Source: an uncultured Methanosarcinales archaeon (GTDB lineage Archaea > Nanobdellota > Nanobdellia > Woesearchaeales > ARS49). From it: 64,000 nt of DNA. The first letter of the stretch is position 1. Each line of letters opens with the position of its first letter. Position numbers and translations under genes: made by a program. Below are positions 9,065 through 50,356 of this stretch, in pieces. The stretch is taken from the NCBI GenBank assembly GCA_964362535.1, contig CAYIEN010000002.1, forward strand, positions 8,133 to 72,132, written 5' to 3'. The notes under the pieces are model-generated. The model had not been told where the DNA came from. It made no database searches and was given only the letters and a program-made list of their open reading frames with translations.

Positions 9065-9949
9065 ATGAAAGCATGGTTGTTGTTGATTGGAATTCTTTTG
9101 GTGAGTTGTGTGCAGAAGGCGGAGGAACCGCTTGCGGAACAACAAACGGGTGTGATCCTAGAAAATGTTTCGGCGCAAAATGTGACGGTGAGTGTGGTTG
9201 AGGATTCGGTGCAGGTAAAAACTGTTGAACGTGCACGTTCGAATTGGTGGATGCCTCGTCCGAGTTTGTCGTGGCAGTGGCAGTTGATGGGTGAGTTGAA
9301 TGAGGAGTATGATGTTGATGTGTATGATGTTGATTTGTTTGATACGTCGAAAGAATCGATTGCGGCGTTGAAAGCGAAGGGTAGTAGAGTTATTTGTTAT
9401 TTTAGCGCGGGTAGTTATGAGGATTGGAGGAGTGATGAGGCTGATTTTTCTGACGATGTTTTGGGTAATACGTTAGAGGGTTGGGAGGATGAGAAGTGGC
9501 TTGACATCTCACGAATAGAGTTGCTCGCGCCAGTTATGCGAAAACGATTGGATCTTGCCGTTGAGAAAGGGTGCGATGGGGTTGAGCCGGATAATGTGGA
9601 CGGGTACGCGAATGATAACGGTTTTTCCTTGACTGCGCAGGACCAGTTGGGGTATAACAAGTGGCTTGCGGCAGAGGCGCACGAACGGGTGTTAGCGATT
9701 GGTTTGAAGAATGATGTAGACCAAATTTTGGAATTGGTAAATGACTTTGATTTTGCCGTTAATGAGCAATGTTTTGAGTATGGTGAGTGTGAGTTGTTGT
9801 TGCCTTTTGTTGAGCGAGAGAAAGCCGTTTTTGGTGTGGAATATGAGTTGGAGCCGGAAGAGTTCTGCGAACGCGCGAAAAGTATGCGGTTGAGCTGGCT
9901 GAAGATGGAGTATGATTTGGATGGCGGAAGAATAAGTTGTGATGAGTAA
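9065..9949 (+). CDS. glycoside hydrolase family 114-like (endo-alpha-1,4-polygalactosaminidase family), lipoprotein
   Basis: Lipobox LLVSC. WQWQL, VYDVDLFD, VICYFSAGSYEDWRSD, WLDI, GCDGVEPDNVDGY, LKND and NEQCFEYGEC match the GH114 TIM-barrel signature as I remember it. Confidence 0.7.
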   Translation: MKAWLLLIGILLVSCVQKAEEPLAEQQTGVILENVSAQNVTVSVVEDSVQVKTVERARSNWWMPRPSLSWQWQLMGELNEEYDVDVYDVDLFDTSKESIAALKAKGSRVICYFSAGSYEDWRSDEADFSDDVLGNTLEGWEDEKWLDISRIELLAPVMRKRLDLAVEKGCDGVEPDNVDGYANDNGFSLTAQDQLGYNKWLAAEAHERVLAIGLKNDVDQILELVNDFDFAVNEQCFEYGECELLLPFVEREKAVFGVEYELEPEEFCERAKSMRLSWLKMEYDLDGGRISCDE

Positions 9950-33742: not shown

Positions 33743-34459
33743 ATGAAGAAATTGTTCGTTATGATGAGTGTGTTGTTGTTGCTCGTGCCGTTGGTGGTGG
33801 CGGAGTCGTATTCGTGTTATTCTGAATCGCAATTGCAGGAGAAGGATGAGGAGTGTCGTTCGGTGGGTCTTGTTTCTTCGCGGTATGTGGATGCCAATGG
33901 CTGCGGACAAGTGCGTTGTCAGGATGTTGAGCATACGTGTTTGTCGCGTGATGATTTGGCGCGTGATGCTGAGATTTGTCAGGATAATGGCATTCGCGCG
34001 GTGTATGATATTGACAGGTATGATTGTCAGTTCGTGACGTGTTTGAGCGCGCGATGTACAACGGACCAAGTGCATACGAATGCTGTTGAGAAGTGCAAGG
34101 AGCTTGGCCGTTTTCCTGATGTCACGGTTGATGATGAGGGTTGCAGGATTGTGACGTGTATGGACTTGAGTTGTCCGGATGTTTCGTCGCAGAAGGAGTC
34201 GTGCGTGCGTAGGGAGCTTGACGCGGTTGAATACAAGGACGCGAAGGGTTGTGACGCGGTGAAGTGCGCTACTCCTCCGGGTGTTGCGTGCAGACGTTCG
34301 ACAACGGGCGATTGCTACACGTTTTCGTGCTCTGACGGCATGATGTATGATTCGTGCAAGAGCTGTCCTGCGACAACAGCATCCACTTCCACAGATACGA
34401 TGACGATTGGTACCACGGATACTCGAGGCTTTTGGGCTCGCTTGTTTAACTGGAAGTAA
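33743..34459 (+). CDS. secreted cysteine-rich tandem-repeat protein (novel 4-Cys module)
   Basis: Signal peptide MKKLFVMMSVLLLLVPLVVA. Four units of about 40 aa with the pattern C-x10-12-C-x14-16-C-x4-C, then CRRSTTGDCYTFSCSDGMMYDSCKSC. Confidence 0.7.
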   Translation: MKKLFVMMSVLLLLVPLVVAESYSCYSESQLQEKDEECRSVGLVSSRYVDANGCGQVRCQDVEHTCLSRDDLARDAEICQDNGIRAVYDIDRYDCQFVTCLSARCTTDQVHTNAVEKCKELGRFPDVTVDDEGCRIVTCMDLSCPDVSSQKESCVRRELDAVEYKDAKGCDAVKCATPPGVACRRSTTGDCYTFSCSDGMMYDSCKSCPATTASTSTDTMTIGTTDTRGFWARLFNWK

Positions 34460-34551
34460 CAATTCTTGTTTTTTATTTCTTTTTTTTCGTTTTTAGACCA
34501 CTGGACAACGTATCGGTAAGCATTTAAGTAAGTTCTTCGGTTATTTTCTTT

Positions 34552-35349
34552 ATGTTGCGTCAAAGTTTTTTGTTTTTGCCGGGTGTGAGTGCCAAAAAGG
34601 AGAAGGTGATTTGGCAGCATGCTGCTGATTGGAATAGTTTTCTCGCGGCAGAGTCGATTCCGGGAATCGCAGCAGACACCAAGCACCAGTTTAACTCCAT
34701 GATTGAGGAGTTGAAGAGCGCGGTGTATGATGATAATTTGGGTTTGCTTGCGAAATTGTTTCCTTCTGCGGAGCAGTGGCGTTTGTATCAGGATTTTCGG
34801 GACGAAGCAGTATTTCTTGACATCGAGACGGGTCCGCGAGGTGACGTGACGGTTGTGGGGATGTCTGATGGCGAAACGACAAAGACGTTTGTGCAGGGGA
34901 TTAATCTTGACAGGCAGGCTCTTGTTGATGCGCTGAAACCTTACAAATTACTGGTAACGTTTAATGGTAAGAGTTTTGATGTTCCTGTGTTGCAAAAATA
35001 TTTTCGAATTCCGTTTGCTATGCCTCATGTTGACCTCAAAGTGGTGTGCGGCAGGCTTGGCTACACGGGTGGTTTGAAAGTTATCGAGCCGCAGTTGGGT
35101 ATTAAGCGTCCGGAAGAGTTGAAGCACGTGACGGGTCAGCAGGCGGCTGAATTGTGGCGTTGTTGGAAGGCAACGGGTGATAAGGATTTCTTTAACATGC
35201 TGATTAAGTATAATGAGGAGGATTGTATTAATCTGAAGACGATTGCGGACAGGTTAGTGCCGCAGTTGTGGGAGCAAACGCGTAATGGAACGCGTGTTTC
35301 GGTGGAACTCGAGGCAGAAACGCTTATAAACAAAAACGAGAGTGTATAG
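34552..35349 (+). CDS. RNase H-like (YprB/COG3359-type) predicted exonuclease
   Basis: FLDIET, TFNGKSFDVPVL and YNEEDCINL (DEDD-like acidic residues). Confidence 0.7.
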   Translation: MLRQSFLFLPGVSAKKEKVIWQHAADWNSFLAAESIPGIAADTKHQFNSMIEELKSAVYDDNLGLLAKLFPSAEQWRLYQDFRDEAVFLDIETGPRGDVTVVGMSDGETTKTFVQGINLDRQALVDALKPYKLLVTFNGKSFDVPVLQKYFRIPFAMPHVDLKVVCGRLGYTGGLKVIEPQLGIKRPEELKHVTGQQAAELWRCWKATGDKDFFNMLIKYNEEDCINLKTIADRLVPQLWEQTRNGTRVSVELEAETLINKNESV

Positions 35350-35351
35350 GT

Positions 35352-35645
35352 ATGCCTGCGAAGAAACAACGAAAGTCAGTGAAGAAAGTAGTGAGTAAGC
35401 CTGTAGCGAAGCATAATCATTCGTTTGCGGGTTTGTTGTTGGGTCTTATCGCGCTTTTGGGTTGCTGGATTCCGTTCTTAGGCACAATTCTTGCACTCAT
35501 TGCTATTGTTTCGTCACGTAAGGGCGGTTTCATGAACATTATTGGTTGTACGCTTGGCATTATTGCGCTGATTTTGAGCTTGGCGATTCTTGGCTTAGTG
35601 GTATTTCTGTTTAGTATAGGCTTTTTCGCGGGAAAAGCGTTTTAA
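35352..35645 (+). CDS. small membrane protein (DUF4190-like)
   Basis: Basic N-terminus followed by two or three TM helices (GLLLGLIALLGCWIPFLGTILALIAIV). Confidence 0.55.
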   Translation: MPAKKQRKSVKKVVSKPVAKHNHSFAGLLLGLIALLGCWIPFLGTILALIAIVSSRKGGFMNIIGCTLGIIALILSLAILGLVVFLFSIGFFAGKAF

Positions 35646-36139
35646 CGATTTTTTGAGAATGCGATAAGAATTCCGTAGAGTGACGTTCCAAGTCCTGTGC
35701 CGATGATGGAGGGGAGGTCTCGTGTTTCTGGCGGAAGAAGGTATGCGAAGGTTGCGCCGAGCGTAAAGCCTATCATGGCGCCCGCAGTTAGTGTGCTGAT
35801 GGATGTGGAGGGGAGTTTTTGCGGGCGGAGCGCGGTCATGACTTCTTCAGTGGTGGGATGGTCTCGTTGTTGTGTGTTGTAAATGCGTTCGCTGAGGGTT
35901 TGTTCTTTTGCGACGCGTTCATAGATTTCTCCGTTGTGTTCAACTTCATTATAGAATGAGGTGGGTTCGCGCCAGCGTTTCCAGGCGTCTTCAACTACTG
36001 CGTCGACATCGGGTGCGTATTTGCCGGCGCGGAGTTTGATTCCTTGTGCCCAGGCAATAGTGGTGTCTTTGGTGAGTGCGTGGTCGCGGATGCCGCGGTG
36101 GAGTTCGTTGCATTCGCGACGGAACTGGTCATATTTCAT
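35642..36139 (-). CDS. hypothetical C-terminally membrane-anchored protein
   Basis: ATG at 36139 (MKYDQFRRE) with a TTTATATA box centred 26.5 nt upstream. The longer track ORF would overlap the nth gene. Two C-terminal TM helices. Confidence 0.5.
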   Translation of the reverse strand: MKYDQFRRECNELHRGIRDHALTKDTTIAWAQGIKLRAGKYAPDVDAVVEDAWKRWREPTSFYNEVEHNGEIYERVAKEQTLSERIYNTQQRDHPTTEEVMTALRPQKLPSTSISTLTAGAMIGFTLGATFAYLLPPETRDLPSIIGTGLGTSLYGILIAFSKNR

Positions 36140-36186
36140 CGTGCGAGAAACAACGTTTTGCTTTATATACTTTCCGACATGGCTTT

Positions 36187-36837
36187 TTAGCGAGAAGTGG
36201 TCACGCCAACGCGTTTGCAGAGTTTGTAAATGGGGCAGATGGAGCATTTCGGAGAAATAGGAGCGCAGATGGTTTTGCCATGCGCGACCAAGGTGTCGTT
36301 GACGGCTTGCCAGTGTTTTTGCGGGATGAGTTTCATGAGTTTTTGTTCCGTCTCCTCAGGCATTTTCGTTTTCACCCAGCCGAGTCGATTAGAAATACGA
36401 TGCACGTGAATGTCAACCGGGATTGCGTCTTTGCCGAACGAGTAGACAAGAACGCAGTTTGCGACTTTGCGTCCAACACCAGGAAACAAAAGCAATTGGT
36501 CAAGTTCATCAGGAACCACGCTATCAAAATCTTGAACTAACATTTTTGCCGCTCCCATGATGCTTTTTGTTTTTGCGTTGAAGAAGCCGATTCTGCGAAT
36601 TATTTTCTTGACGTCAGAAGGTTTTGCGTTCATTAAGGAGTTCGCGTCGGGATATTTTTTGAAGAGTTCTTCGGCGATGACTTCAGTCACTTCATCCTTC
36701 GCGCGGGCGGAAAGAATCGTAGAAATCAGCACTTTGTAGGGAGCATACTTTTGTCCCATCCGTCCCAACATAGTGCTTATTCCTTGCTGTTTGAGGAGTG
36801 TAGAGAGTGTTTTGTCAATCTGGTCGTGCGAAATCAT
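36187..36837 (-). CDS. nth: endonuclease III (DNA glycosylase/AP lyase)
   Basis: HhH-GPD: LLFPGVGRKVANCVL, VDIHVHR, and the 4Fe-4S cluster loop CAPISPKCSICPIYKLC. Confidence 0.85.
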   Translation of the reverse strand: MISHDQIDKTLSTLLKQQGISTMLGRMGQKYAPYKVLISTILSARAKDEVTEVIAEELFKKYPDANSLMNAKPSDVKKIIRRIGFFNAKTKSIMGAAKMLVQDFDSVVPDELDQLLLFPGVGRKVANCVLVYSFGKDAIPVDIHVHRISNRLGWVKTKMPEETEQKLMKLIPQKHWQAVNDTLVAHGKTICAPISPKCSICPIYKLCKRVGVTTSR

Positions 36838-37204
36838 TTGATACCTCGAAGAAATTAAGCATGCCATTGCAGGGGCGTTCAGGTAGGCGTTGCGGGTTTG
36901 TTAATACAAAGCCGTAGCGTGGTTTTCCGTCCCAATCGCTGAGTGCGAGGTGCAGGTGTTTGTCGGCGTCCCATTGTTGTTTTGTTTCGTATTTTTTGAC
37001 GCTGACGAGAGTGACCTTTCCGATGATGCATTTGCCTGGCGGATTGACGAGAGTGAAGTAAGCACAGGCGGAAGGGTTAGGATTGCCGGACGCGTGCACG
37101 AGAAACTCGCCGCGGAAGGACGTGTTCCAGTTGCGTGTTTCGATTGTTTTTTTGCCCGAGACGACTAATTCTGCCCAGGGTTGTTTGAGTGAGAGTGCTT
37201 TCAT
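36815..37204 (-). CDS. ASCH domain protein
   Basis: MKALSLKQPWAELVVSGKKTIETRNW is the typical ASCH N-terminus; 129 aa. Confidence 0.75.
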   Translation of the reverse strand: MKALSLKQPWAELVVSGKKTIETRNWNTSFRGEFLVHASGNPNPSACAYFTLVNPPGKCIIGKVTLVSVKKYETKQQWDADKHLHLALSDWDGKPRYGFVLTNPQRLPERPCNGMLNFFEVSNDFARPD

Positions 37205-37276
37205 CGTGTTTGTTTTGTTTTCGTGTTACTTAAACATTTGCGAAGGAATAAATAGGTGTGGGAACTTTATGCCCTC

Positions 37277-37978
37277 ATGTTCGAAAAACTTGTTCCTTTG
37301 GGATTAACATTGACAGAATCGAAGATTTATGTCATGCTTGTTGACTTAGGAAGGTCGCAGGCAGGGATTATCTCGAGAAAAACAGGGATTCATCGCCGAA
37401 GTGTGTATGATGCTCTTGAACGATTAATAGAGAAAGGTTTAGTTTCTTACATTAAGGAGAATGAAAAGCGTTTTTACGTTCCAACAGACCCGCAGCATCT
37501 TTTAGAATTATTGAAACACACTGAAACAGACCTGCAAACCGTTCTTCCGTCGTTGAAAGCGAAGTATGCGGAAGCGAAGCAGAAGCAGGAGACGCTATTC
37601 TATAGGGGAGTGGAAGGTATCAAAGCCATCTTCGATGACCAGATCGCGACGGGCAAGGATGTTTCCATTATGGGTGCTGCGAGAAATGCTCCTGAAATTT
37701 TGAAATACTATTTAGGCCATTACACAGAAAAGAGATTGAAGAAGAATATCAAGTTGCAATTGATTTATGCAGGTAAGAAGAACAAAGAAACCGTTCCGAA
37801 CGCCGAAATCAAGTATTTACCTGATGAATTCGCCAGCCCCGTATCAACAAACGTTTACGGCGATAAAGTGGCAATCATTGTCTGGGGCGTCGAACCCGTT
37901 GCAATCTTGATCAAGAGTAAAGAAATCGCGCAGGCATACCATTCGTACTTCAGTTTGTTGTGGTCGTTGGCGAAATAA
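37277..37978 (+). CDS. TrmB family transcriptional regulator
   Basis: LGLTLTESKIYVMLVDLGRSQAGIISRKTGIHRRSVYDALERLIEKGLV wHTH. The ATG at 37277 is 26.5 nt from the AATAAATA box centre. Confidence 0.75.
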   Translation: MFEKLVPLGLTLTESKIYVMLVDLGRSQAGIISRKTGIHRRSVYDALERLIEKGLVSYIKENEKRFYVPTDPQHLLELLKHTETDLQTVLPSLKAKYAEAKQKQETLFYRGVEGIKAIFDDQIATGKDVSIMGAARNAPEILKYYLGHYTEKRLKKNIKLQLIYAGKKNKETVPNAEIKYLPDEFASPVSTNVYGDKVAIIVWGVEPVAILIKSKEIAQAYHSYFSLLWSLAK

Positions 37979-38181
37979 AAGAAAAAATAAATCACCACTC
38001 GCAAATAAATAATGCTCGTTATCACTCAGCATCTTTCTTTTCTCTACTATGCATAACCACAATCTATTTAAATCAGAAAAAGGATTTTCCTAGTGGTAGC
38101 AAAAGAGGTGAAACCACAAGTAATGGTGGTTTCTACATCGTCGGCATCGTCGGTGGCTCTTGAAGCATACCGCCCTATATG

Positions 38182-38200
38182 TTGTGTATATCAAGCACAA
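38182..38200 (+). promoter_or_regulatory. imperfect palindrome TTGTG-N9-CACAA overlapping the nrdR TATA region (candidate operator)
   Basis: TTGTGTATATCAAGCACAA ends 10 nt before the nrdR ATG. The adjacent CCCTATATGTTGTGT shares the CTATAT...GTGT part of bacterial NrdR boxes. The match is weak. Confidence 0.25.
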
Positions 38201-38209
38201 TGAACCACC

Positions 38210-38665
38210 ATGAACTGCCCGTTTTGTCTCCACGTTGAAAGCAAAGTGGTGGACAGCCGAGCGTCGGTTGATGGTGGCGAGACAAGAAGAAGGCGAGAAT
38301 GTTTGGATTGCGAAAAGCGATTCACAACGTACGAACGATTGGACACGGTTGATTTGGCAATCATCAAGAAGGATGGTCGCCGGGAAGCGTTTAGCCGCGA
38401 AAAACTCACAAGGGGCTTGTTCAAGGCGTGCGAGAAACGTCCAATCGCGAGAGAAAAGATAGAAGCGGCGGTTTCCGCAATTGAGGCAGGGTTAAGAAAG
38501 AACGACCGCCAAGAAGTGTCGTCGAGAAAAATTGGTGAATTAGTAATGGAACAATTGAAAAAATTAGACCATGTCGCGTATGTCCGTTTTGCTTCTGTGT
38601 ATCGAAGTTTCAGAGATATTTCACAATTCGAGAAAGAAATCAAACTATTAAAACAGGAAAAATGA
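38210..38665 (+). CDS. nrdR: transcriptional repressor NrdR (Zn ribbon + ATP-cone)
   Basis: MNCPFCLHVESKVVDSRASVDGGETRRRRECLDCEKRFTTYE followed by an ATP-cone (IIKKDGRREAFSREKLTRGL...). Full length, 151 aa. Confidence 0.9.
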   Translation: MNCPFCLHVESKVVDSRASVDGGETRRRRECLDCEKRFTTYERLDTVDLAIIKKDGRREAFSREKLTRGLFKACEKRPIAREKIEAAVSAIEAGLRKNDRQEVSSRKIGELVMEQLKKLDHVAYVRFASVYRSFRDISQFEKEIKLLKQEK

Positions 38666-38675
38666 GGTGTGTTGT

Positions 38676-41600
38676 ATGCAAGTAAGTGTTCAGACCCCGG
38701 GTTTATTTGTCGGCAGAAAATTTACATCGCCGAGTACGTCGCCGTATGATATGTTGGAATACGAAAAGCGATCTTCAGTAATTAAAGAGCCTGACGGTCG
38801 TATCGTGTTCGAGATGACGGATGTCGAAGTTCCGAAAACGTGGTCACAACTTGCAACAGACATTGTAGTTTCTAAATACTTCAGAAAGGCTGGCGTTCCA
38901 GGAACGGGTCACGAAGTGAACGTTAAGCAAGTCGTCAACCGTATTGCGCACACCATTCGCGGTTTTGGCGAAGAGCACGGCTATTTCCGATTGAAGGATG
39001 ACGCGAACGCGTTCGAAGACGAACTTGCATACATGTTGTTAACCCAAAGAGGGGCGTTCAACTCGCCTGTTTGGTTCAATTGTGGCTTGTTCCACCAGTA
39101 TGGGGTGCTCGGCAGTTCGGGCAACCACGCGTGGGACTTTGGCACGAAGAAAATCGACGTGATGGCACACGCATACCAACGCCCTCAGTGTTCGGCGTGT
39201 TTCATTCAGTCGATCAATGACGATATCAAGAGTATTTTCGACTTGTTGAGTCACGAAGCGACCGTGTTCAAGTATGGTTCCGGTACGGGAACGAACTTTA
39301 GTAAGTTGCGAGCGACGGGCGAGCAGTTGTCCGGCGGTGGCACGAGTTCGGGATTGATGAGCTTCCTGAAGGTGTTTGACACGGGCGCGGGCGCAATCAA
39401 GTCTGGTGGTACAACACGAAGAGCGGCGAAGATGGTCGTTCTCGATATGGACCACCCTGACATTTTGGAATTCGTTCAATGGAAATCCAAGGAAGAAAAG
39501 AAGGCCAAGGCGTTGATTGCCGCGGGTTATCCTTCGGACTTTAACGGCGAAGCGTACGCGACGGTTGCGGGTCAGAACTCCAACAACAGCGTGCGTTTGA
39601 CGGATGAATTCATGAATGCATATCTTTCTGGCGGCACGTTCGCGACCAAATGGCGAACAACGGGCAAGACGGCGAAGGAATATGATGCGAAGTTTATGAT
39701 GAGTAAGATTGCGGAGGCTGCGTGGATTTGCGCGGATCCGGGCGTGCAGTTTGATACAACGATGAATGACTGGCACACGTGTCCGAACACTGGCAGAATT
39801 AATGCAAGTAACCCGTGTTCTGAATATTTGTTCTTGGACGACTCGGCATGCAACCTCGCAAGCATTAACTTGATGAAGTTTGTTGACGAGAAAGGTGTGT
39901 TTGACATTGAGGGCTATCGCCATGCGTGTCGCACGTTCTTTGTCGCGCAAGAAATTTTGGTCGATTTGTCAAGTTATCCGACGGGGCCGATTGCGCAGAA
40001 CAGCCATGATTATAGAACGCTTGGCTTGGGCTACGCAAATCTCGGTACGTTGTTGATGGTTTGGGGCATCCCCTATGACTCGGACAAGGGCCGAGCGATT
40101 GCGGGAGCTTTGACTGCAATCATGACTGGTCACGCGTATGTCGCGTCTGCTGAAATGGCGGCCGTGAAGGGCGCGTTCGAAGGCTATGCAAAGAACAAGG
40201 AGCCGATGCTTCGAGTGATGCGTAAGCATCGAGATGCGGCGTACCAGATTGATGTTCGTTTCTGCCCGGCTGATTTGTTGAAGGCTGCGCGTGAAGACTG
40301 GGATCGCGCGGTTGAGTTGGGCGAAAAGTATGGTTACAGAAATGCACAGGCAACAGTCATTGCTCCGACCGGAACAATCGGACTTTTGATGGACTGTGAC
40401 ACGACGGGTGTTGAGCCTGAATTCGCGATGGTCAAGTGGAAGAAGTTGGCTGGCGGCGGTTACTTCAAGATTGTGAACAATAGTATTGTTCGCGCGTTGA
40501 ACACGCTTGGGTACAGTGAAGACCAAGTGAGTGAGATGCTTGAATACGTGCTTGGTCACAATACGTTCGAAGGCGCTCCTCATGTGCATACGGAAGCGTT
40601 GCGCGCGATGGGATTTACAAGCGACCAAATCAAGGAAGCCGAAGCAAGTGTCCAAAAAGCAAAGTCGTGGAACGACTGGACTCCGCACATCAATCCGAAG
40701 ACGCTGATCAACAAGGGGTTGAGCAAGCAGCAGATTGATGAGGCGAAGATTTACGTTGAAGGCGCACAGACGTTGGAGGGCGCTCCGGATTTGAAGCCGG
40801 AACATGGTGCAGTGTTTGATTGCGCGAACCCGTGCGGTATTGGTAAGCGATTTATCGACCCGATGGGGCACGTGAAGATGATGGTTGCGGTGCAGCCGTT
40901 TATCTCCGGCGCTATCTCGAAGACGGTGAACTTGCCGAATTACGCGACGGTTGAGGATATTCAGAATATTTATGTTGAGGCGTGGAAGATGGGCTTGAAG
41001 GCTGTTGCGTTGTATCGTGATGGTTGCAAGTCGTCGCAACCCTTGAACACGAAGAGCGAGGAAAAGGCGGCTGACAAAGTCGTTGAGAAGGTTGTTGCTC
41101 CGCAAATTATCGTGCAGGAGTATACGGGCTTGAAGCGCGGTCAGAAGCTTGAGCTTCCTCCGAATAGTGATGGATGTACCGTGGAATCGACGGTCGCGGG
41201 ACACAAGTTTTTCTTGCGTGCGGGTGAGTATGAGGACGGCAAGCTTGGCGAAATCTTCATTGATATGCACAAGGAAGGCGCGGCGTATCGTTCGTTGATC
41301 AACTGCTTCGCTATCGCGGTGTCGATTGGTTTGCAGTATGGTGTTCCGTTGGAGAAGTTCGTGGATAAGTTTACGTTCACGCGTTTCGAGCCGAACGGCA
41401 TGACGGATCACCCGAACGTCAGAATGTGCACGTCGATTATTGACTTGGTGTTCCGTGTCCTTGGATACGAATATCTTGGGCGTACGGACTTTTTGCACGT
41501 GAAGCCAACAACGATGGATGAAGTGTCTGTCGCTCCGGCACCGGCTGCGGCTGATGATGTGCAGGCGTCGTTAGACACGTTTGAGTCAAAGCTTCCGTCG

Positions 41601-41738
41601 GAAGCGTCAGGTATGCAGCAGCAGTTGGGCAAAATGATGGGTGACGCTCCGGCGTGCTCATCCTGCGGTCACGTTACTGTTCGCAACGGCTCGTGCTACA
41701 AGTGCCTGAACTGCGGCAACTCGATGGGTTGCAGTTAA
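38676..41738 (+). CDS. nrdJ: class II (adenosylcobalamin-dependent) ribonucleotide reductase, long bacterial type
   Basis: QCSACFIQSI, GSGTGTNFSKLR and the intact radical-site motif ASNPCSEYLFLDDSACNLASINL; C-terminal CSSCG...CYKCLNCG zinc finger. ATG at 38676, 6 nt after the GAGGTG SD that spans the nrdR stop. Confidence 0.9.
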   Translation: MQVSVQTPGLFVGRKFTSPSTSPYDMLEYEKRSSVIKEPDGRIVFEMTDVEVPKTWSQLATDIVVSKYFRKAGVPGTGHEVNVKQVVNRIAHTIRGFGEEHGYFRLKDDANAFEDELAYMLLTQRGAFNSPVWFNCGLFHQYGVLGSSGNHAWDFGTKKIDVMAHAYQRPQCSACFIQSINDDIKSIFDLLSHEATVFKYGSGTGTNFSKLRATGEQLSGGGTSSGLMSFLKVFDTGAGAIKSGGTTRRAAKMVVLDMDHPDILEFVQWKSKEEKKAKALIAAGYPSDFNGEAYATVAGQNSNNSVRLTDEFMNAYLSGGTFATKWRTTGKTAKEYDAKFMMSKIAEAAWICADPGVQFDTTMNDWHTCPNTGRINASNPCSEYLFLDDSACNLASINLMKFVDEKGVFDIEGYRHACRTFFVAQEILVDLSSYPTGPIAQNSHDYRTLGLGYANLGTLLMVWGIPYDSDKGRAIAGALTAIMTGHAYVASAEMAAVKGAFEGYAKNKEPMLRVMRKHRDAAYQIDVRFCPADLLKAAREDWDRAVELGEKYGYRNAQATVIAPTGTIGLLMDCDTTGVEPEFAMVKWKKLAGGGYFKIVNNSIVRALNTLGYSEDQVSEMLEYVLGHNTFEGAPHVHTEALRAMGFTSDQIKEAEASVQKAKSWNDWTPHINPKTLINKGLSKQQIDEAKIYVEGAQTLEGAPDLKPEHGAVFDCANPCGIGKRFIDPMGHVKMMVAVQPFISGAISKTVNLPNYATVEDIQNIYVEAWKMGLKAVALYRDGCKSSQPLNTKSEEKAADKVVEKVVAPQIIVQEYTGLKRGQKLELPPNSDGCTVESTVAGHKFFLRAGEYEDGKLGEIFIDMHKEGAAYRSLINCFAIAVSIGLQYGVPLEKFVDKFTFTRFEPNGMTDHPNVRMCTSIIDLVFRVLGYEYLGRTDFLHVKPTTMDEVSVAPAPAAADDVQASLDTFESKLPSEASGMQQQLGKMMGDAPACSSCGHVTVRNGSCYKCLNCGNSMGCS

Positions 41739-41740
41739 GC

Positions 41741-42142
41741 ATGACCTTGGAGCATGAACTGGTCAGCGTGACGCTGTCGCAAAACGATTTTTCTTCTTTT
41801 ATTTCTTTATTTAAACAAAAACTTGTTGATTGGGACCGGTCTTGTCGTTCGTATATGGAGGGTGAGTCTCGTTTTCGCACTCCGGAGTATGAGGTTGCAG
41901 TCGCGATGGGGCGTGCGCAGCGTCAGGTCGCGTTTGGCGTCATTTTTGATGCGATGAAGAAGACTGGTCTGCGATTGGACTGGCCTGAGTTGGTGAGTGA
42001 GATTAATGGCGAGTCTATTTTTTCTGCTGTGTTTCCTGAGGAGCTTGCGGGTGATGTTGGTGCGGCGCACGCATATACGTTGGGTTGGGTGCTTCGCCAA
42101 GTGCAGGGTCCGTATTATGATGCGGTGCGCGAACGACTATGA
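41741..42142 (+). CDS. hypothetical protein (133 aa) in the nrdJ-pduO operon
   Basis: The ATG lies 2 nt after the nrdJ stop. No recognised family. Confidence 0.5.
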   Translation: MTLEHELVSVTLSQNDFSSFISLFKQKLVDWDRSCRSYMEGESRFRTPEYEVAVAMGRAQRQVAFGVIFDAMKKTGLRLDWPELVSEINGESIFSAVFPEELAGDVGAAHAYTLGWVLRQVQGPYYDAVRERL

Positions 42143-42489
42143 CTTCTGAACTTTCGATTGATACATTCGTTGAAGAATTGTTCACGAGGCATCGGAGGGA
42201 TTTGTTGGTCGAGCACCGTCGGAATCCGTGGAAGGTTTCGTTTTGGCGTTTGCACGAGAATGAGTCGTATCAAGGGCTTGTGAAGTTGGGCAGTAAGGCG
42301 TTTCCGTACTTTCGGTTTGCGCTGGAACAGCAGGGTCCTGATGCGTTGTTTCTTGCGGCTGCGGTGGTGACGATTGTGCAGGGGGATGCGCAATTGCGCG
42401 TTTCTACCGAGGCGTTGAAGTATCAGCAGGCGGAGCGCGCGGTGGAGTACGCGTTGGGTTTGATGAATGAGTTTCAGAGGCAGGCATGA
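42139..42489 (+). CDS. hypothetical protein (116 aa) in the nrdJ-pduO operon
   Basis: ATGA overlaps at both ends (42139 and 42486). No recognised family. Confidence 0.5.
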   Translation: MTSELSIDTFVEELFTRHRRDLLVEHRRNPWKVSFWRLHENESYQGLVKLGSKAFPYFRFALEQQGPDALFLAAAVVTIVQGDAQLRVSTEALKYQQAERAVEYALGLMNEFQRQA

Positions 42490-43004
42490 CGAACTATTTT
42501 ACGTGCACGGGGGATGCTGGTGAGTCGGGTATTCAGTTTCAGCGGTTGCAAAAGACGGATCCGGTGTTTGCCGCGATTGGGTGTGTTGATGAATTGAATG
42601 CTTCGTTGGGTGTTGCGTTGGCGTTTGTGGAGGATTTGCCTGTCAAGGAAGTGCTTGTTTCGACGCAGAATGTGTTGTTTACGGTGGGCGCGGAGTTAGC
42701 CGGAGCGGCGAAGGTGCGCATCACGGAGCAGCACGTGACTGATGTCGAGACTGCCGTGCATAACTTTTCTCAGGGTCTTAAAGAGCAAACCACGTTTTTG
42801 TTACCGCAGGGCACGAAGTCTGCTGCGTTTTTGCATTTGGCACGAACGATTTGTCGTCGAGCAGAAAGAAGTGCGCGAGTTCTCCATGAAACAAAGCCAG
42901 TGAATAATGAATTGTTGCGTTACTTGAATAGATTGTCATCATTGCTGTTTGTGCTGGCGAGATACGAAAATAGAAACAGCAATGAAGTCGCGCCGAAATA
43001 TTAA
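42486..43004 (+). CDS. pduO: PduO-type ATP:cob(I)alamin adenosyltransferase
   Basis: TGDAGESG, AIGCVDELNASLG, QNVLFTVGAELA, FLLPQG, LHLARTICRRAER and YLNRLSSLLFVLAR. Confidence 0.85.
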   Translation: MTNYFTCTGDAGESGIQFQRLQKTDPVFAAIGCVDELNASLGVALAFVEDLPVKEVLVSTQNVLFTVGAELAGAAKVRITEQHVTDVETAVHNFSQGLKEQTTFLLPQGTKSAAFLHLARTICRRAERSARVLHETKPVNNELLRYLNRLSSLLFVLARYENRNSNEVAPKY

Positions 43005-47930: not shown

Positions 47931-50003
47931 CTAGTAAGAACACTCTGTAGGACTGCCGCCTGAATATTCGGTCGAAACGGCCAATTTTTCTTCTTTTATT
48001 TTTCCTACGGTTGTTACGTGTCCTTTCTTGCTGCCGTTTCGGAAGATGGTGACGTTTTTGCAGTTGAGTTTGTGCGAGAGTAAATATGCTTTTTTGACGT
48101 CTTCAACAGTTGATTTCTCAGGCAGGTTGATTGTTTTTCCGATGGTGCTGTCGCAATGTTTTTGGAATGCTGCTTGCATTTTGATGTGGGCTTCAGGAAC
48201 AATATCGGATGAAGCCATAAATAGTCGTTGAACGTCTTTCGGTACTTCTTTGAGGCCTTGCACGCTTCCTTTGTGGGCGATTTTGAGCATGAGCGCTTTT
48301 GAGTAAAATTCTTTTTCACGCGCGATTTCTTCGAAGACAGGATTGACTTCAAGGACGTGCATGCCGTTTGCTACGTCGCGTAAGAATGCAACGGCGAATA
48401 AGGGTTCGATGCCGGATGTTGCGTTGGTGAGTGCGCTGATGGTTCCGGTTTGGGCAATTGCAGTGACGGTTGCGTTGCGCGTTCCTTTCAGCGTGCGTTT
48501 GTCTTTGGTCCAGGAAGATAATGAAAAGTTGGGGAAGCTTCCGCGTTTAACACTTGATTCGGTTGATGTTTTGCGTGCTTCGTCGTTGATGAACTTCATG
48601 AGTTTCTCGGCGAATTCGAGCGCTTTCGGAGAATCGTAAGGCAATCCTAATTTGATGAGCATTTCGGCGAAGCCCATGATTCCGAGTCCGATGCGTCGAT
48701 TTGCTTTGGTGACTGCTTCAATTTGCGGAAGAGCGTATTTGTTTGCGTCAATGCTGTTGTCTAAAAAGTGAATTGCGAGTTTGATTGTTTCAGTAAGGCG
48801 TTCCCATTCGGGTTTGCCGTGCTTGACGAATTTGGAAACGTTGATGCTGCCGAGAGTGCAGGATTCAAAAGGATGCAATGGTTGTTCGCCAGAAGTTGAT
48901 TCGATGTTTCCTAATGCGGAAGTTTGATTCGCGCGATTAATGCTTTCGATAAACAACAGTCCGGGTTCTCCTGTCATCCATGCGTTGTGGGCAAGTAAAT
49001 CGAAAACTGTTTTCGCGTTGAGTTTTCCGGTTTCTTTGTGCGTGTGCGGGTCAATGAGTGAGTATTCTTGGTTTTTTTCGACGGCTTTCAAAAAGTCGTC
49101 TGTGACTGCGACGTTAAAATTTATGTGAGAAAATGCTCCTTCTCGGAGTTTTGCGTTGATAAAGTCAAGTATGTCCGGATGGTCGATGCGAAGCACGGCG
49201 GTGTTTGCTCCTTTGCGTTTGCTTCCTTGTTTGATGACGTCGGTTGCGACGTCGAAGACGCGTAGAAAGCTTAAGGGTCCGGACGAGTGACCTTTCGTGC
49301 TTTTGATGAGCGAGTTCTTCGGGCGCAAATGACTAAAGGAAAATCCTGTGCTTCCGCCGCTTTGGTGAACTAAAGCCATCGTTTTGACTGATTCAAAAAT
49401 GTCGGATAGTGAGTCGCCAACAGGAAGTACAAAGCAAGAAGATAGTTGTCCTGCGTGCGTGCCTGCATTCATGAGTGTGGGTGTGTTTGGCAAAAATTCA
49501 AGGGAAGAAAGTGATTGATAGAATTTTTCTTCGGTTTTTTGCGTGTTGGATTTCTGGTCGTACGTTCGATCAACATGAGCAATAACTTTTGCGACGCGGC
49601 GGAACAATCGAGAAGGTGTTTCGACAACGGCTCCTTCGTCGTTGCGTAAGAGATAGCGGTCTGCTAAAACCGTAATAGCGTTCGAGCTTAATCCGAGGTC
49701 ATCGCGTACGCCGTGATACGTTCTGAATTCTTTGACTTTGTTGGTTAAACGGTAAGAGTGGTATGCTTTCACAGCATCGAGGAGTTTGTTTTTGGTGAGG
49801 ATTTCTTCGACAACGTCTTGAACGTCTTGTGCGGTTGGCGCAATAGTGAATTGTTTTTCGAGGAGTTGTACGACTTGTTCGGCGAGTTTTTTTGCTTTGG
49901 GCTGTTCTTTTGGCTTCAAAGCTGCGTGGATGGATGCCACAAGTTTGGCTGGCTGGAAGAGTTCCCAGACGCCGTCTCGTTTGAGGATTTGTGTGATTTT
50001 CAC
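47931..50003 (-). CDS. class II RNR (NrdJ)-like protein with ATP-cone but a degenerate radical-site motif
   Basis: GTG start. ATP-cone (ILKRDGVWELF...), SSCFVLPV, GGSTGFSFSHLRP and GEQPLHPFESCTLGSINV. The expected N-P-C-G-E motif reads S-T-S-G-E (codons on 48885-48899). Confidence 0.85.
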   Translation of the reverse strand: MKITQILKRDGVWELFQPAKLVASIHAALKPKEQPKAKKLAEQVVQLLEKQFTIAPTAQDVQDVVEEILTKNKLLDAVKAYHSYRLTNKVKEFRTYHGVRDDLGLSSNAITVLADRYLLRNDEGAVVETPSRLFRRVAKVIAHVDRTYDQKSNTQKTEEKFYQSLSSLEFLPNTPTLMNAGTHAGQLSSCFVLPVGDSLSDIFESVKTMALVHQSGGSTGFSFSHLRPKNSLIKSTKGHSSGPLSFLRVFDVATDVIKQGSKRKGANTAVLRIDHPDILDFINAKLREGAFSHINFNVAVTDDFLKAVEKNQEYSLIDPHTHKETGKLNAKTVFDLLAHNAWMTGEPGLLFIESINRANQTSALGNIESTSGEQPLHPFESCTLGSINVSKFVKHGKPEWERLTETIKLAIHFLDNSIDANKYALPQIEAVTKANRRIGLGIMGFAEMLIKLGLPYDSPKALEFAEKLMKFINDEARKTSTESSVKRGSFPNFSLSSWTKDKRTLKGTRNATVTAIAQTGTISALTNATSGIEPLFAVAFLRDVANGMHVLEVNPVFEEIAREKEFYSKALMLKIAHKGSVQGLKEVPKDVQRLFMASSDIVPEAHIKMQAAFQKHCDSTIGKTINLPEKSTVEDVKKAYLLSHKLNCKNVTIFRNGSKKGHVTTVGKIKEEKLAVSTEYSGGSPTECSY

Positions 50004-50041
50004 GACGATAAGAAGGGGAAAGGTGCTTAATAAACATTACT

Positions 50042-50127
50042 TATTTTCTATATAGAAAATATATTCGGGACTATATATATGATGAACGAAGTCCGAGAGT
50101 ACATAATTATTTGCTATATAGAAACTT
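50042..50127. promoter_or_regulatory. 20-bp perfect palindrome plus a 17/20 second copy and a third CTATATAT box upstream of the NrdJ-like gene
   Basis: TATTTTCTATATAGAAAATA (50042-50061), ACTATATATAT (50070-50080) and TATTTGCTATATAGAAACTT (50108-50127). The centres of boxes 1 and 3 are 66 bp apart. Confidence 0.4.
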
Positions 50128-50356
50128 ATTCGTTGGTTACGTGAATACAGTTGACGGGACAAATTTCCTCTGCTTCTTTGCTTTTGTCCATCTTCGCAAC
50201 AGAGCGTTCTTCGCGTACGCCTTCAGCTACTTTGTGGTGTTTTGATTCTTTTAAATCCACGAAATTATCATCGGCCATTTCCCAGCGGTCAGGATCTACC
50301 GCAACGCAGCTACCGCAACCGATGCATTTCCAGCGTTCGTGAACAATCTTAATCAT
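50126..50356 (-). CDS. small ferredoxin (single Fe-S cluster type)
   Basis: MIKIVHERWKCIGCGSCVAVDP...EEICPVNCIH (CxxCxxC...CP). ATG at 50356 with a TTTATAAT box centred 26.5 nt upstream. The track ORF is over-extended. Confidence 0.7.
   Translation of the reverse strand: MIKIVHERWKCIGCGSCVAVDPDRWEMADDNFVDLKESKHHKVAEGVREERSVAKMDKSKEAEEICPVNCIHVTNE

Follow-up and report, generated by a model that had tools for sequence, protein, structure and literature searches.

In Streptomyces, the gene of the repressor NrdR and that of a class II ribonucleotide reductase (RNR), nrdJ, are known to stand in nrdRJ order (PMC13584703), and haloarchaeal nrdR-nrdAB/nrdBA operons were acquired from bacteria (Lundin et al. 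2010, PMC3019208). Here we analyze a 64,000-nucleotide (nt) stretch of contig CAYIEN010000002.1 (the window), in which five tightly coupled genes occupy positions 38210-43004 of the + strand: nrdR, nrdJ, two middle open reading frames (ORFs) labeled here unkA (133 aa) and unkB (116 aa), and pduO. Loading of adenosylcobalamin (AdoCbl) enzymes is assisted by an adenosyltransferase (ATR) or a chaperone in the ATR-MeaB-methylmalonyl-CoA mutase system and by PduO in the pdu system, and we know of no accessory protein for NrdJ. Judged from its genes and their junctions, the cluster is probably a transcription unit in a DPANN-type archaeon that scavenges B12, and it would couple an nrdJ of bacterial ancestry to the repressor gene nrdR and to the cofactor-making gene pduO.

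The locus resembles each of these systems in part. As in the nrdRJ operon of Streptomyces coelicolor, which encodes an NrdR-autoregulated class II RNR, nrdR directly precedes, in the same direction, a long, tailed nrdJ, NrdR is canonical (Zn ribbon, ATP-cone, D15/R17), and an NrdR box precedes nrdR. Unlike in S. coelicolor, the host is an archaeon whose promoters depend on TATA-binding protein (TBP) and transcription factor B (TFB), one recognizable box is present instead of two, and the operon goes on with unkA, unkB and pduO. Its NrdJ is nearest to those of Myxococcota and Bdellovibrionota, with no actinobacterial genome among the 80 best genome matches (79 bacteria and one archaeon, L006) used for comparison of nrdJ loci. 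As in the haloarchaeal nrdR-nrdAB operons, a bacterial-type RNR is accompanied by nrdR, and the archaeal host retains another, different RNR; the haloarchaeal operons, however, encode class I enzymes (nrdA/nrdB) in Halobacteria, whereas here the enzyme is of class II, the genome is DPANN-type and a cofactor-activation gene is included. Two bacterial loci, in Candidatus Udaeobacter (L064) and a gammaproteobacterium (L036), likewise have a long nrdJ followed directly by a co-directional PduO-type gene, but with a gap of 84-115 nt, no genes between, no nrdR upstream and an NrdJ on another branch of the tree; they are the only 2 of the 79 bacterial loci with this adjacency. The ATR-MeaB and pdu systems share with the cluster an AdoCbl enzyme encoded beside an adenosyltransferase that makes and can deliver AdoCbl, with a small extra protein between. 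In contrast to these systems, unkA and unkB encode no P-loop (GxxxxGK[ST]), no iron-sulfur (Fe-S) or flavin signature, and nothing similar to MeaB, PduS, PduGH or CblC/D.

Re-reading of the sequence gave the coordinates and junctions of the five genes as they had been described in the initial annotation. The nrdR stop codon (TGA, 38663-38665) overlaps a Shine-Dalgarno-like motif for nrdJ, GAGGTG at 38664-38669 (+ strand), which is followed after 6 nt by the nrdJ ATG at 38676; the nrdR-nrdJ spacing is 10 nt, with the motif inside it. A gap of 2 nt separates the nrdJ stop codon (41736-41738) from the unkA ATG at 41741, ATGA overlaps join unkA to unkB (42139-42142) and unkB to pduO (42486-42489), and the end of pduO at 43004 overlaps the stop codon of a convergent pirin gene. 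The cluster is neither chimeric nor an assembly artefact, since independent Hainich groundwater assemblies reproduce both of its flanks: contig L001 spans nrdJ to pirin, and contig L089 spans an RNase-H-like gene through trmB, nrdR and nrdJ. Identical proteins are encoded on contigs from 0.1 µm filtrates of Hainich groundwater and on a 78.9-kb NCBI contig labeled ‘Nanoarchaeota archaeon’. This label, together with the scores of the FtsY encoded in the window (303 bits against 3dm9 and 263 bits against 5l3s, with the next chains at 187 bits or less), shows that the host is an archaeon, as initially proposed; we take 3dm9 and 5l3s to be FtsY structures from Pyrococcus and Sulfolobus, respectively, and the chains with lower scores to be bacterial. 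TrmB-type regulators, an S-layer-like protein and a Thermoproteus-type glycerate kinase in the window fit this assignment. The accompanying statement that all genes flanking the cluster are typically archaeal was too strong, as many of them are orphans or generic.

The identities given to NrdR, NrdJ and PduO hold, each scoring above a curated cut-off. NrdR (38210-38665, + strand, 151 aa) reaches 205.5 bits against TIGR00244 (3.6e-61; cut-off 124.65) and can be aligned from end to end with solved NrdR structures (158 bits). Its Zn ribbon (PF22811 at 1.6e-19, profile positions 1-42 of 42) contains two CxxC pairs (C3, C6, C31 and C34) and is accompanied by an ATP-cone (PF03477 at 9.8e-26). The motif VVDSR provides D15 and R17; in S. 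coelicolor numbering, Asp15 and Arg17 read C4 and G13 of the NrdR box (PMC13584703). NrdR is far commoner in bacteria than in archaea, where it has been called rare (PMC9110341), and it was initially described as a characteristically bacterial repressor. That view is weakened: an NrdR in an archaeon is no surprise, because of the haloarchaeal nrdR-nrdAB operons (PMC3019208) and because NrdR is found in 22% of archaeal genomes (PMC13584703).

A candidate operator precedes the nrdR ATG by 23 nt. The 16-mer GCCCTATATGTTGTGT (38172-38187, no strand assigned), found by consensus scan, is the sole match with three or fewer mismatches to the NrdR-box consensus ACACWATATATWGTGT in the 64-kb window, has the highest weighted score there (19/22; runner-up 17), and fits all six box positions described as highly conserved, C4, A6, A8, T9, T11 and G13 (PMC13584703). 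The hexamer CTATAT in its center is spaced as the archaeal TATA element of a near-leaderless mRNA. If this probable TATA element and the transcription start site that it implies are correctly assigned, NrdR bound at 38172-38187 would occlude TBP.

NrdJ (38676-41738, + strand, 1020 aa) lacks an ATP-cone, as do more than 90% of class II RNRs (PMC4520616). It scores 1305.8 bits against PRK06556 (cut-off 859) and 597 bits against TIGR02504 (3.4e-179; cut-off 400), contains the barrel (PF02867 at 1.9e-138), Ribonuc_red_2_N (PF08471 at 2.2e-28) and TSCPD (PF12637) domains, and has 7b9q (925 residues) as its best solved relative, at 805 bits. Given these high full-length scores, decay of the active site is unlikely. 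The C-terminus CSSCGHVTVRNGSCYKCLNCGNSMGCS holds six cysteines in a cysteine-rich domain of the form CSSC-x9-CYKCLNC-x5-C (41655-41735, + strand). Such a domain is a Zn-binding, thioredoxin-facing tail that mediates re-reduction and occurs in about 70% of NrdJ sequences (PMC5704485). Of the long, bacterial-type NrdJ with a C-terminal finger that was first described, the finger is therefore present as a six-cysteine tail, but it is no marker of a bacterial type.

PduO (42486-43004, + strand, 172 aa) is a stand-alone PduO-type ATP:cob(I)alamin adenosyltransferase, matching PF01923 at 2.6e-46 over profile positions 2-170 of 171 and scoring 150.1 bits against TIGR00636 (cut-off 108.45). Its best solved relative is 2zhy (3.5e-30), and the ATP-binding motif T-x-x-GD-x-G-x-[TS] occurs as TCTGDAGES at residues 6-14, aligned to TRTGDDGTT of 2zhy. 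The PDB matches do not tell a bacterial from an archaeal origin, since the two top chains, presumably one bacterial and one archaeal, score alike. No cobalamin riboswitch or other Rfam family was detected in the cluster, and no genes for B12 biosynthesis or transport were seen among the scanned proteins of the window.

The two middle genes were initially reported to have no recognizable family, and comparison with Pfam, NCBIfam, PHROGs and PDB sequences bears this out. UnkA (41741-42142, + strand) is an acidic, predicted helical protein, for which an exhaustive phmmer search of 1.84 billion representative proteins returned a single homolog, P0003 (50% identity, E 4.4e-26), encoded on a 695-bp contig, L086. 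There the 3' end of nrdJ (...CLNCGNSMGCS stop) is followed by TAAGC, the unkA homolog, an ATGA overlap and the N-terminus of PduO; the slot of unkA between nrdJ and pduO is kept to the nucleotide. Between the window and L086, the ratio of nonsynonymous to synonymous divergence (dN/dS) is 0.38 for unkA and 0.25 for PduO. UnkB (42139-42489, + strand), also predicted helical and coupled translationally on both sides, contains no cysteine and is absent from the L086 cluster. Word-index searches of 5.8e9 proteins with both sequences found only themselves, UnkB being present only in its own population; a profile search with UnkA found only its two known members, and a profile scan of JGI metagenome contigs recovered only the same population. 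Neither protein has relatives in viral contigs, phage records or plasmid records or a paralog in the window, and the two show no similarity to each other. A weak match of UnkA to YbjN (E 0.16) was dropped, as it was not reproduced by the homolog P0003, and a PDB match to CD48 (E 0.007) was taken as chance. Single-sequence AlphaFold2 (AF2) models of both proteins reached a predicted local distance difference test (pLDDT) score of 48.5 each, and Foldseek returned nothing at E < 1 for either, so that the profile and structure searches proposed at the outset yielded neither a family nor a fold.

UnkA and unkB are nevertheless real genes, because all polymorphic sites in them across strain contigs, six of six, are synonymous third positions (p = 0.0014); the variable sites of unkB are 42321 and 42450. 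With its conserved position and its dN/dS, unkA is a gene under selection and a candidate for an accessory protein of B12 or RNR; unkB is a lineage-specific orphan. The suggestion that both are candidates for B12 handling gains some support for unkA, whose homolog lies between nrdJ and pduO in L086, and none for unkB, which that locus lacks. Participation in re-reduction of the RNR, offered as an alternative, finds no support: UnkB has no cysteine and UnkA no conserved one, which makes a thiol or Fe-S redox role unlikely and, with the missing P-loop, disfavors a GTPase-chaperone role as well. It is possible, and we propose it tentatively, that UnkA is a small non-redox helper in the step that links PduO and NrdJ, for instance as an adaptor, or as an escort while the cofactor is handed over. 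For unkB there is a fairly good case that it is a young, lineage-specific insertion riding the operon.

A competing explanation, doubtful but to be taken seriously, is that unkA and unkB are real but unrelated to ribonucleotide reduction or B12, being fast-evolving DPANN orphans, perhaps host-interaction or selfish cassettes, kept in the operon for expression. This would account for the lack of a family, motif or confident fold in both proteins and for the absence of unkB from L086, the only related locus. It also agrees with the scarcity of the pair elsewhere: hmmsearch, phmmer and tblastn over all ORFs found unkA or unkB beside nrdJ in 0 of the 80 loci, and of the neighborhood conservation that was to be checked only the placement of unkA in L086 was recovered. 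The same population, moreover, has another orphan-gene insertion after pduO, on contig L001. It accounts less well for unkA, whose exact slot (TAAGC after the nrdJ stop and the ATGA overlap) recurs in a second lineage, where the homolog is 50% identical, and which evolves under purifying selection; the translational coupling of each ORF to both of its neighbors suggests that the products are made together in stoichiometric amounts.

The cluster was further proposed to be a horizontally acquired module, and this claim divides. Relatives of NrdJ were sought in one genome of each GTDB species, and about 600 were returned. The closest is that of L006, an ‘uncultured archaeon’ (65%), followed by those of Myxococcota, Bdellovibrionota, Omnitrophota, Acidobacteriota and others at 56-65%. 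In a neighbor-joining tree the window and L006 sequences are sisters in 200/200 bootstraps, and the pair groups with NrdJ of Myxococcota, Bdellovibrionota, Omnitrophota and Acidobacteriota, again in 200/200. The phylogenetic check thus returned the expected bacterial nesting, and bacterial ancestry of NrdJ, an affinity common to a second archaeon, is supported by these sequences. A recent transfer of the whole five-gene block from a bacterium is, on the other hand, very unlikely. It would fit the nesting of NrdJ among bacterial sequences, the greater frequency of NrdR in bacteria and the nrdRJ order known from Streptomyces. However, the GC content at third codon positions (GC3) of the five genes, 0.47-0.63 against 0.39-0.62 in other window genes, was reported as host-like, which argues against a recent single-block transfer, and their overall GC also lies inside the range of the other window genes. 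In L006, nrdR (57% identical to the window NrdR) abuts nrdJ with a 1-nt gap, convergent unrelated genes lie beyond, and unkA, unkB and pduO are absent from the locus. Among the 80 loci, nrdR adjoins nrdJ in two, L006 and one bacterium, a Poribacteria metagenome-assembled genome; among the 79 bacterial ones, the unknowns were thus found in none, nrdR upstream in one and pduO adjacent in two. Because the closest NrdJ and NrdR, both in L006, are only 65% and 57% identical, the data support an old acquisition of nrdJ or its spread within archaea, with the five genes not having arrived as one recent block.

Least probable of all is that unkA, unkB or both are non-coding spacer or decayed remnants between nrdJ and pduO: their orphan status, the low AF2 confidence and the lack of any homolog of unkB could be read in this way, but open frames of 133 and 116 codons have chances of about 0.002 and 0.004, the start and stop overlaps are exact, the polymorphic sites are those of coding sequence, unkA has its conserved homolog under constraint, and no RNA-structure signal was found over unkA/unkB (z = -0.87).

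We propose the following model for the unit with unkA as a possible helper. NrdR loaded with ATP and dATP would bind the box coinciding with the TATA element and block TBP and TFB, which would turn the whole unit off at plentiful deoxyribonucleoside triphosphates (dNTPs); repression by NrdR would in this way substitute for the ATP-cone missing from the cluster NrdJ. The derepressed unit would yield five proteins from one short-leader mRNA. PduO would then adenosylate scavenged cobalamin and supply AdoCbl to NrdJ, and probably also to a second NrdJ encoded nearby, and the six-cysteine tail of NrdJ would be re-reduced by a thioredoxin-type system encoded elsewhere. A stronger version seems improbable: that unkA founds a new accessory family dedicated to class II RNRs, acting between PduO and NrdJ in AdoCbl hand-over or cofactor repair, and that NrdR has been rewired from the two-box site of bacteria to a single box over an archaeal TATA element.

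Several observations weigh against this model. The canonical NrdR site consists of two 16-bp boxes with a 15-16 bp linker, and tight binding in bacteria needs both (PMC13584703). No second box stands at that spacing beside 38172-38187, and box pairs sought across the whole window gave none near an RNR gene. The L006 nrdR-nrdJ locus also shows one good box, ACACAACAGGTTGTGG at 9429-9444, which fits 5/6 conserved positions and lies about 35 nt upstream of nrdR, and a partner at canonical spacing was not found there either. For unkA and unkB, no fold, motif or ligand-binding signature backs a B12 role; the unkA family has two members, and two cases of synteny are thin and could reflect shared ancestry alone. 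A T-rich tract, TTTTCTTCTTTTATTTCTTTATTT, lies early in unkA (41786-41815) and is matched in position by a T5 run of the L086 homolog (about 118-135); such an oligo-T stretch could serve as an archaeal attenuator that separates nrdJ from the genes after it. Finally, the ancestry tree covers NrdJ and not NrdR or PduO.

The second class II RNR, nrdJ2 (47931-50003, - strand, 690 aa), lies 5 kb downstream of the cluster in the opposite orientation and was not in the initial annotation. It scores 830 bits against PRK08665 and 634 bits against TIGR02504, carries an N-terminal ATP-cone (PF03477) together with PF00317 and PF02867, and ends without a cysteine-rich tail (...TEYSGGSPTECSY). Its best solved relative is 1xje (379 bits), which we take to be a Thermotoga-type enzyme. 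The organism holds, then, two distant NrdJ paralogs: judged by domain content, nrdJ2 would be allosterically switchable via its own ATP-cone, and the cluster NrdJ, which has no cone, sits behind a repressor that has one. In subclass NrdJd, tail-less enzymes are found only in genomes that also encode a tailed NrdJd (PMC5704485); a pair of tail-less and tailed NrdJ is present in this organism as well. Directly upstream of nrdJ2 is a 76-aa single-cluster 4Fe-4S ferredoxin (50126-50356, - strand; PF13459 at 1.5e-09, PF13370 at 1.6e-08), which might be an alternative reductant. The region between them (50004-50125) contains two copies of TTCTATATAG at a distance of 66 bp and, within this interval, CATATATATAG; these three TATATAG-type repeats in the nrdJ2 promoter may represent several TATA-like elements or else an operator. 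No convincing NrdR box was found in this promoter, and the repeats do not fit the spacing of boxes.

Comparison of strains revealed an uneven pattern of divergence across the cluster. Between the window and L001, synonymous divergence (dS) is 0.27 in nrdJ, 0.51 in pduO and 0.24 in the pirin gene, as against 0.04 in unkA and 0 in unkB; the low-divergence block over unkA/unkB differs from its flanks (dS 0.27-0.51) with p = 3e-12. A gene-specific sweep at unkA/unkB was rejected as its cause, the same two strains being mosaic everywhere: over 34197-43000, compared with L089 and L001, kilobase blocks at 0% divergence (for example 35397-36196, 36797-37796 and 41741-42489) alternate with blocks at 5-19% (for example 36197-36596 in the nth gene). 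The block is therefore treated as ordinary recombination mosaicism, and the strongly mosaic strains indicate that the population recombines homologously often.

The L001 contig, from a co-occurring strain, contains a 1.55-kb insert after pduO (L001 3396-5005; window junction at about 42945-43004). It encodes two orphan genes, of 377 aa and 130 aa, the latter probably a membrane protein, and beyond it lies a displaced copy, of about 60 nt, of the original pduO 3' end, which is closer to the window sequence than is the functional 3' end of pduO in L001 itself. From this arrangement the insert looks like an element integrated in the pduO 3' end that supplies a replacement end; no integrase was seen. 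Upstream of the cluster, the interval that separates nrdR from the trmB-like gene contains at 38107-38130 an inverted repeat with perfect 8-bp arms, GAAACCAC-N8-GTGGTTTC, which could be a terminator hairpin or the operator of another regulator. Every 1-kb bin of positions 1-64000 has a positive GC skew regardless of gene strand, and the cumulative skew climbs monotonically.

NrdR in archaea and the adjacency of nrdJ and pduO in bacteria are already known, and most of the cluster is ordinary in this respect. What appears new, at the level of sequence, is a tiny unkA family that occupies the nrdJ-pduO interval, the orphan unkB and, possibly, a single-box NrdR site over an archaeal TATA element. 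If the reading of the cluster as one unit is correct, a genome-reduced, cofactor-scavenging archaeon puts an enzyme, its dNTP-sensing repressor and the activation of its cofactor into one unit, which stands near a second, differently regulated reductase. The locus would provide two test cases: whether one box is enough for a bacterial NrdR to act as repressor at a TBP/TFB promoter of an archaeon, and whether, as tentatively proposed here, the position-conserved unkA represents a first accessory factor of class II RNRs.

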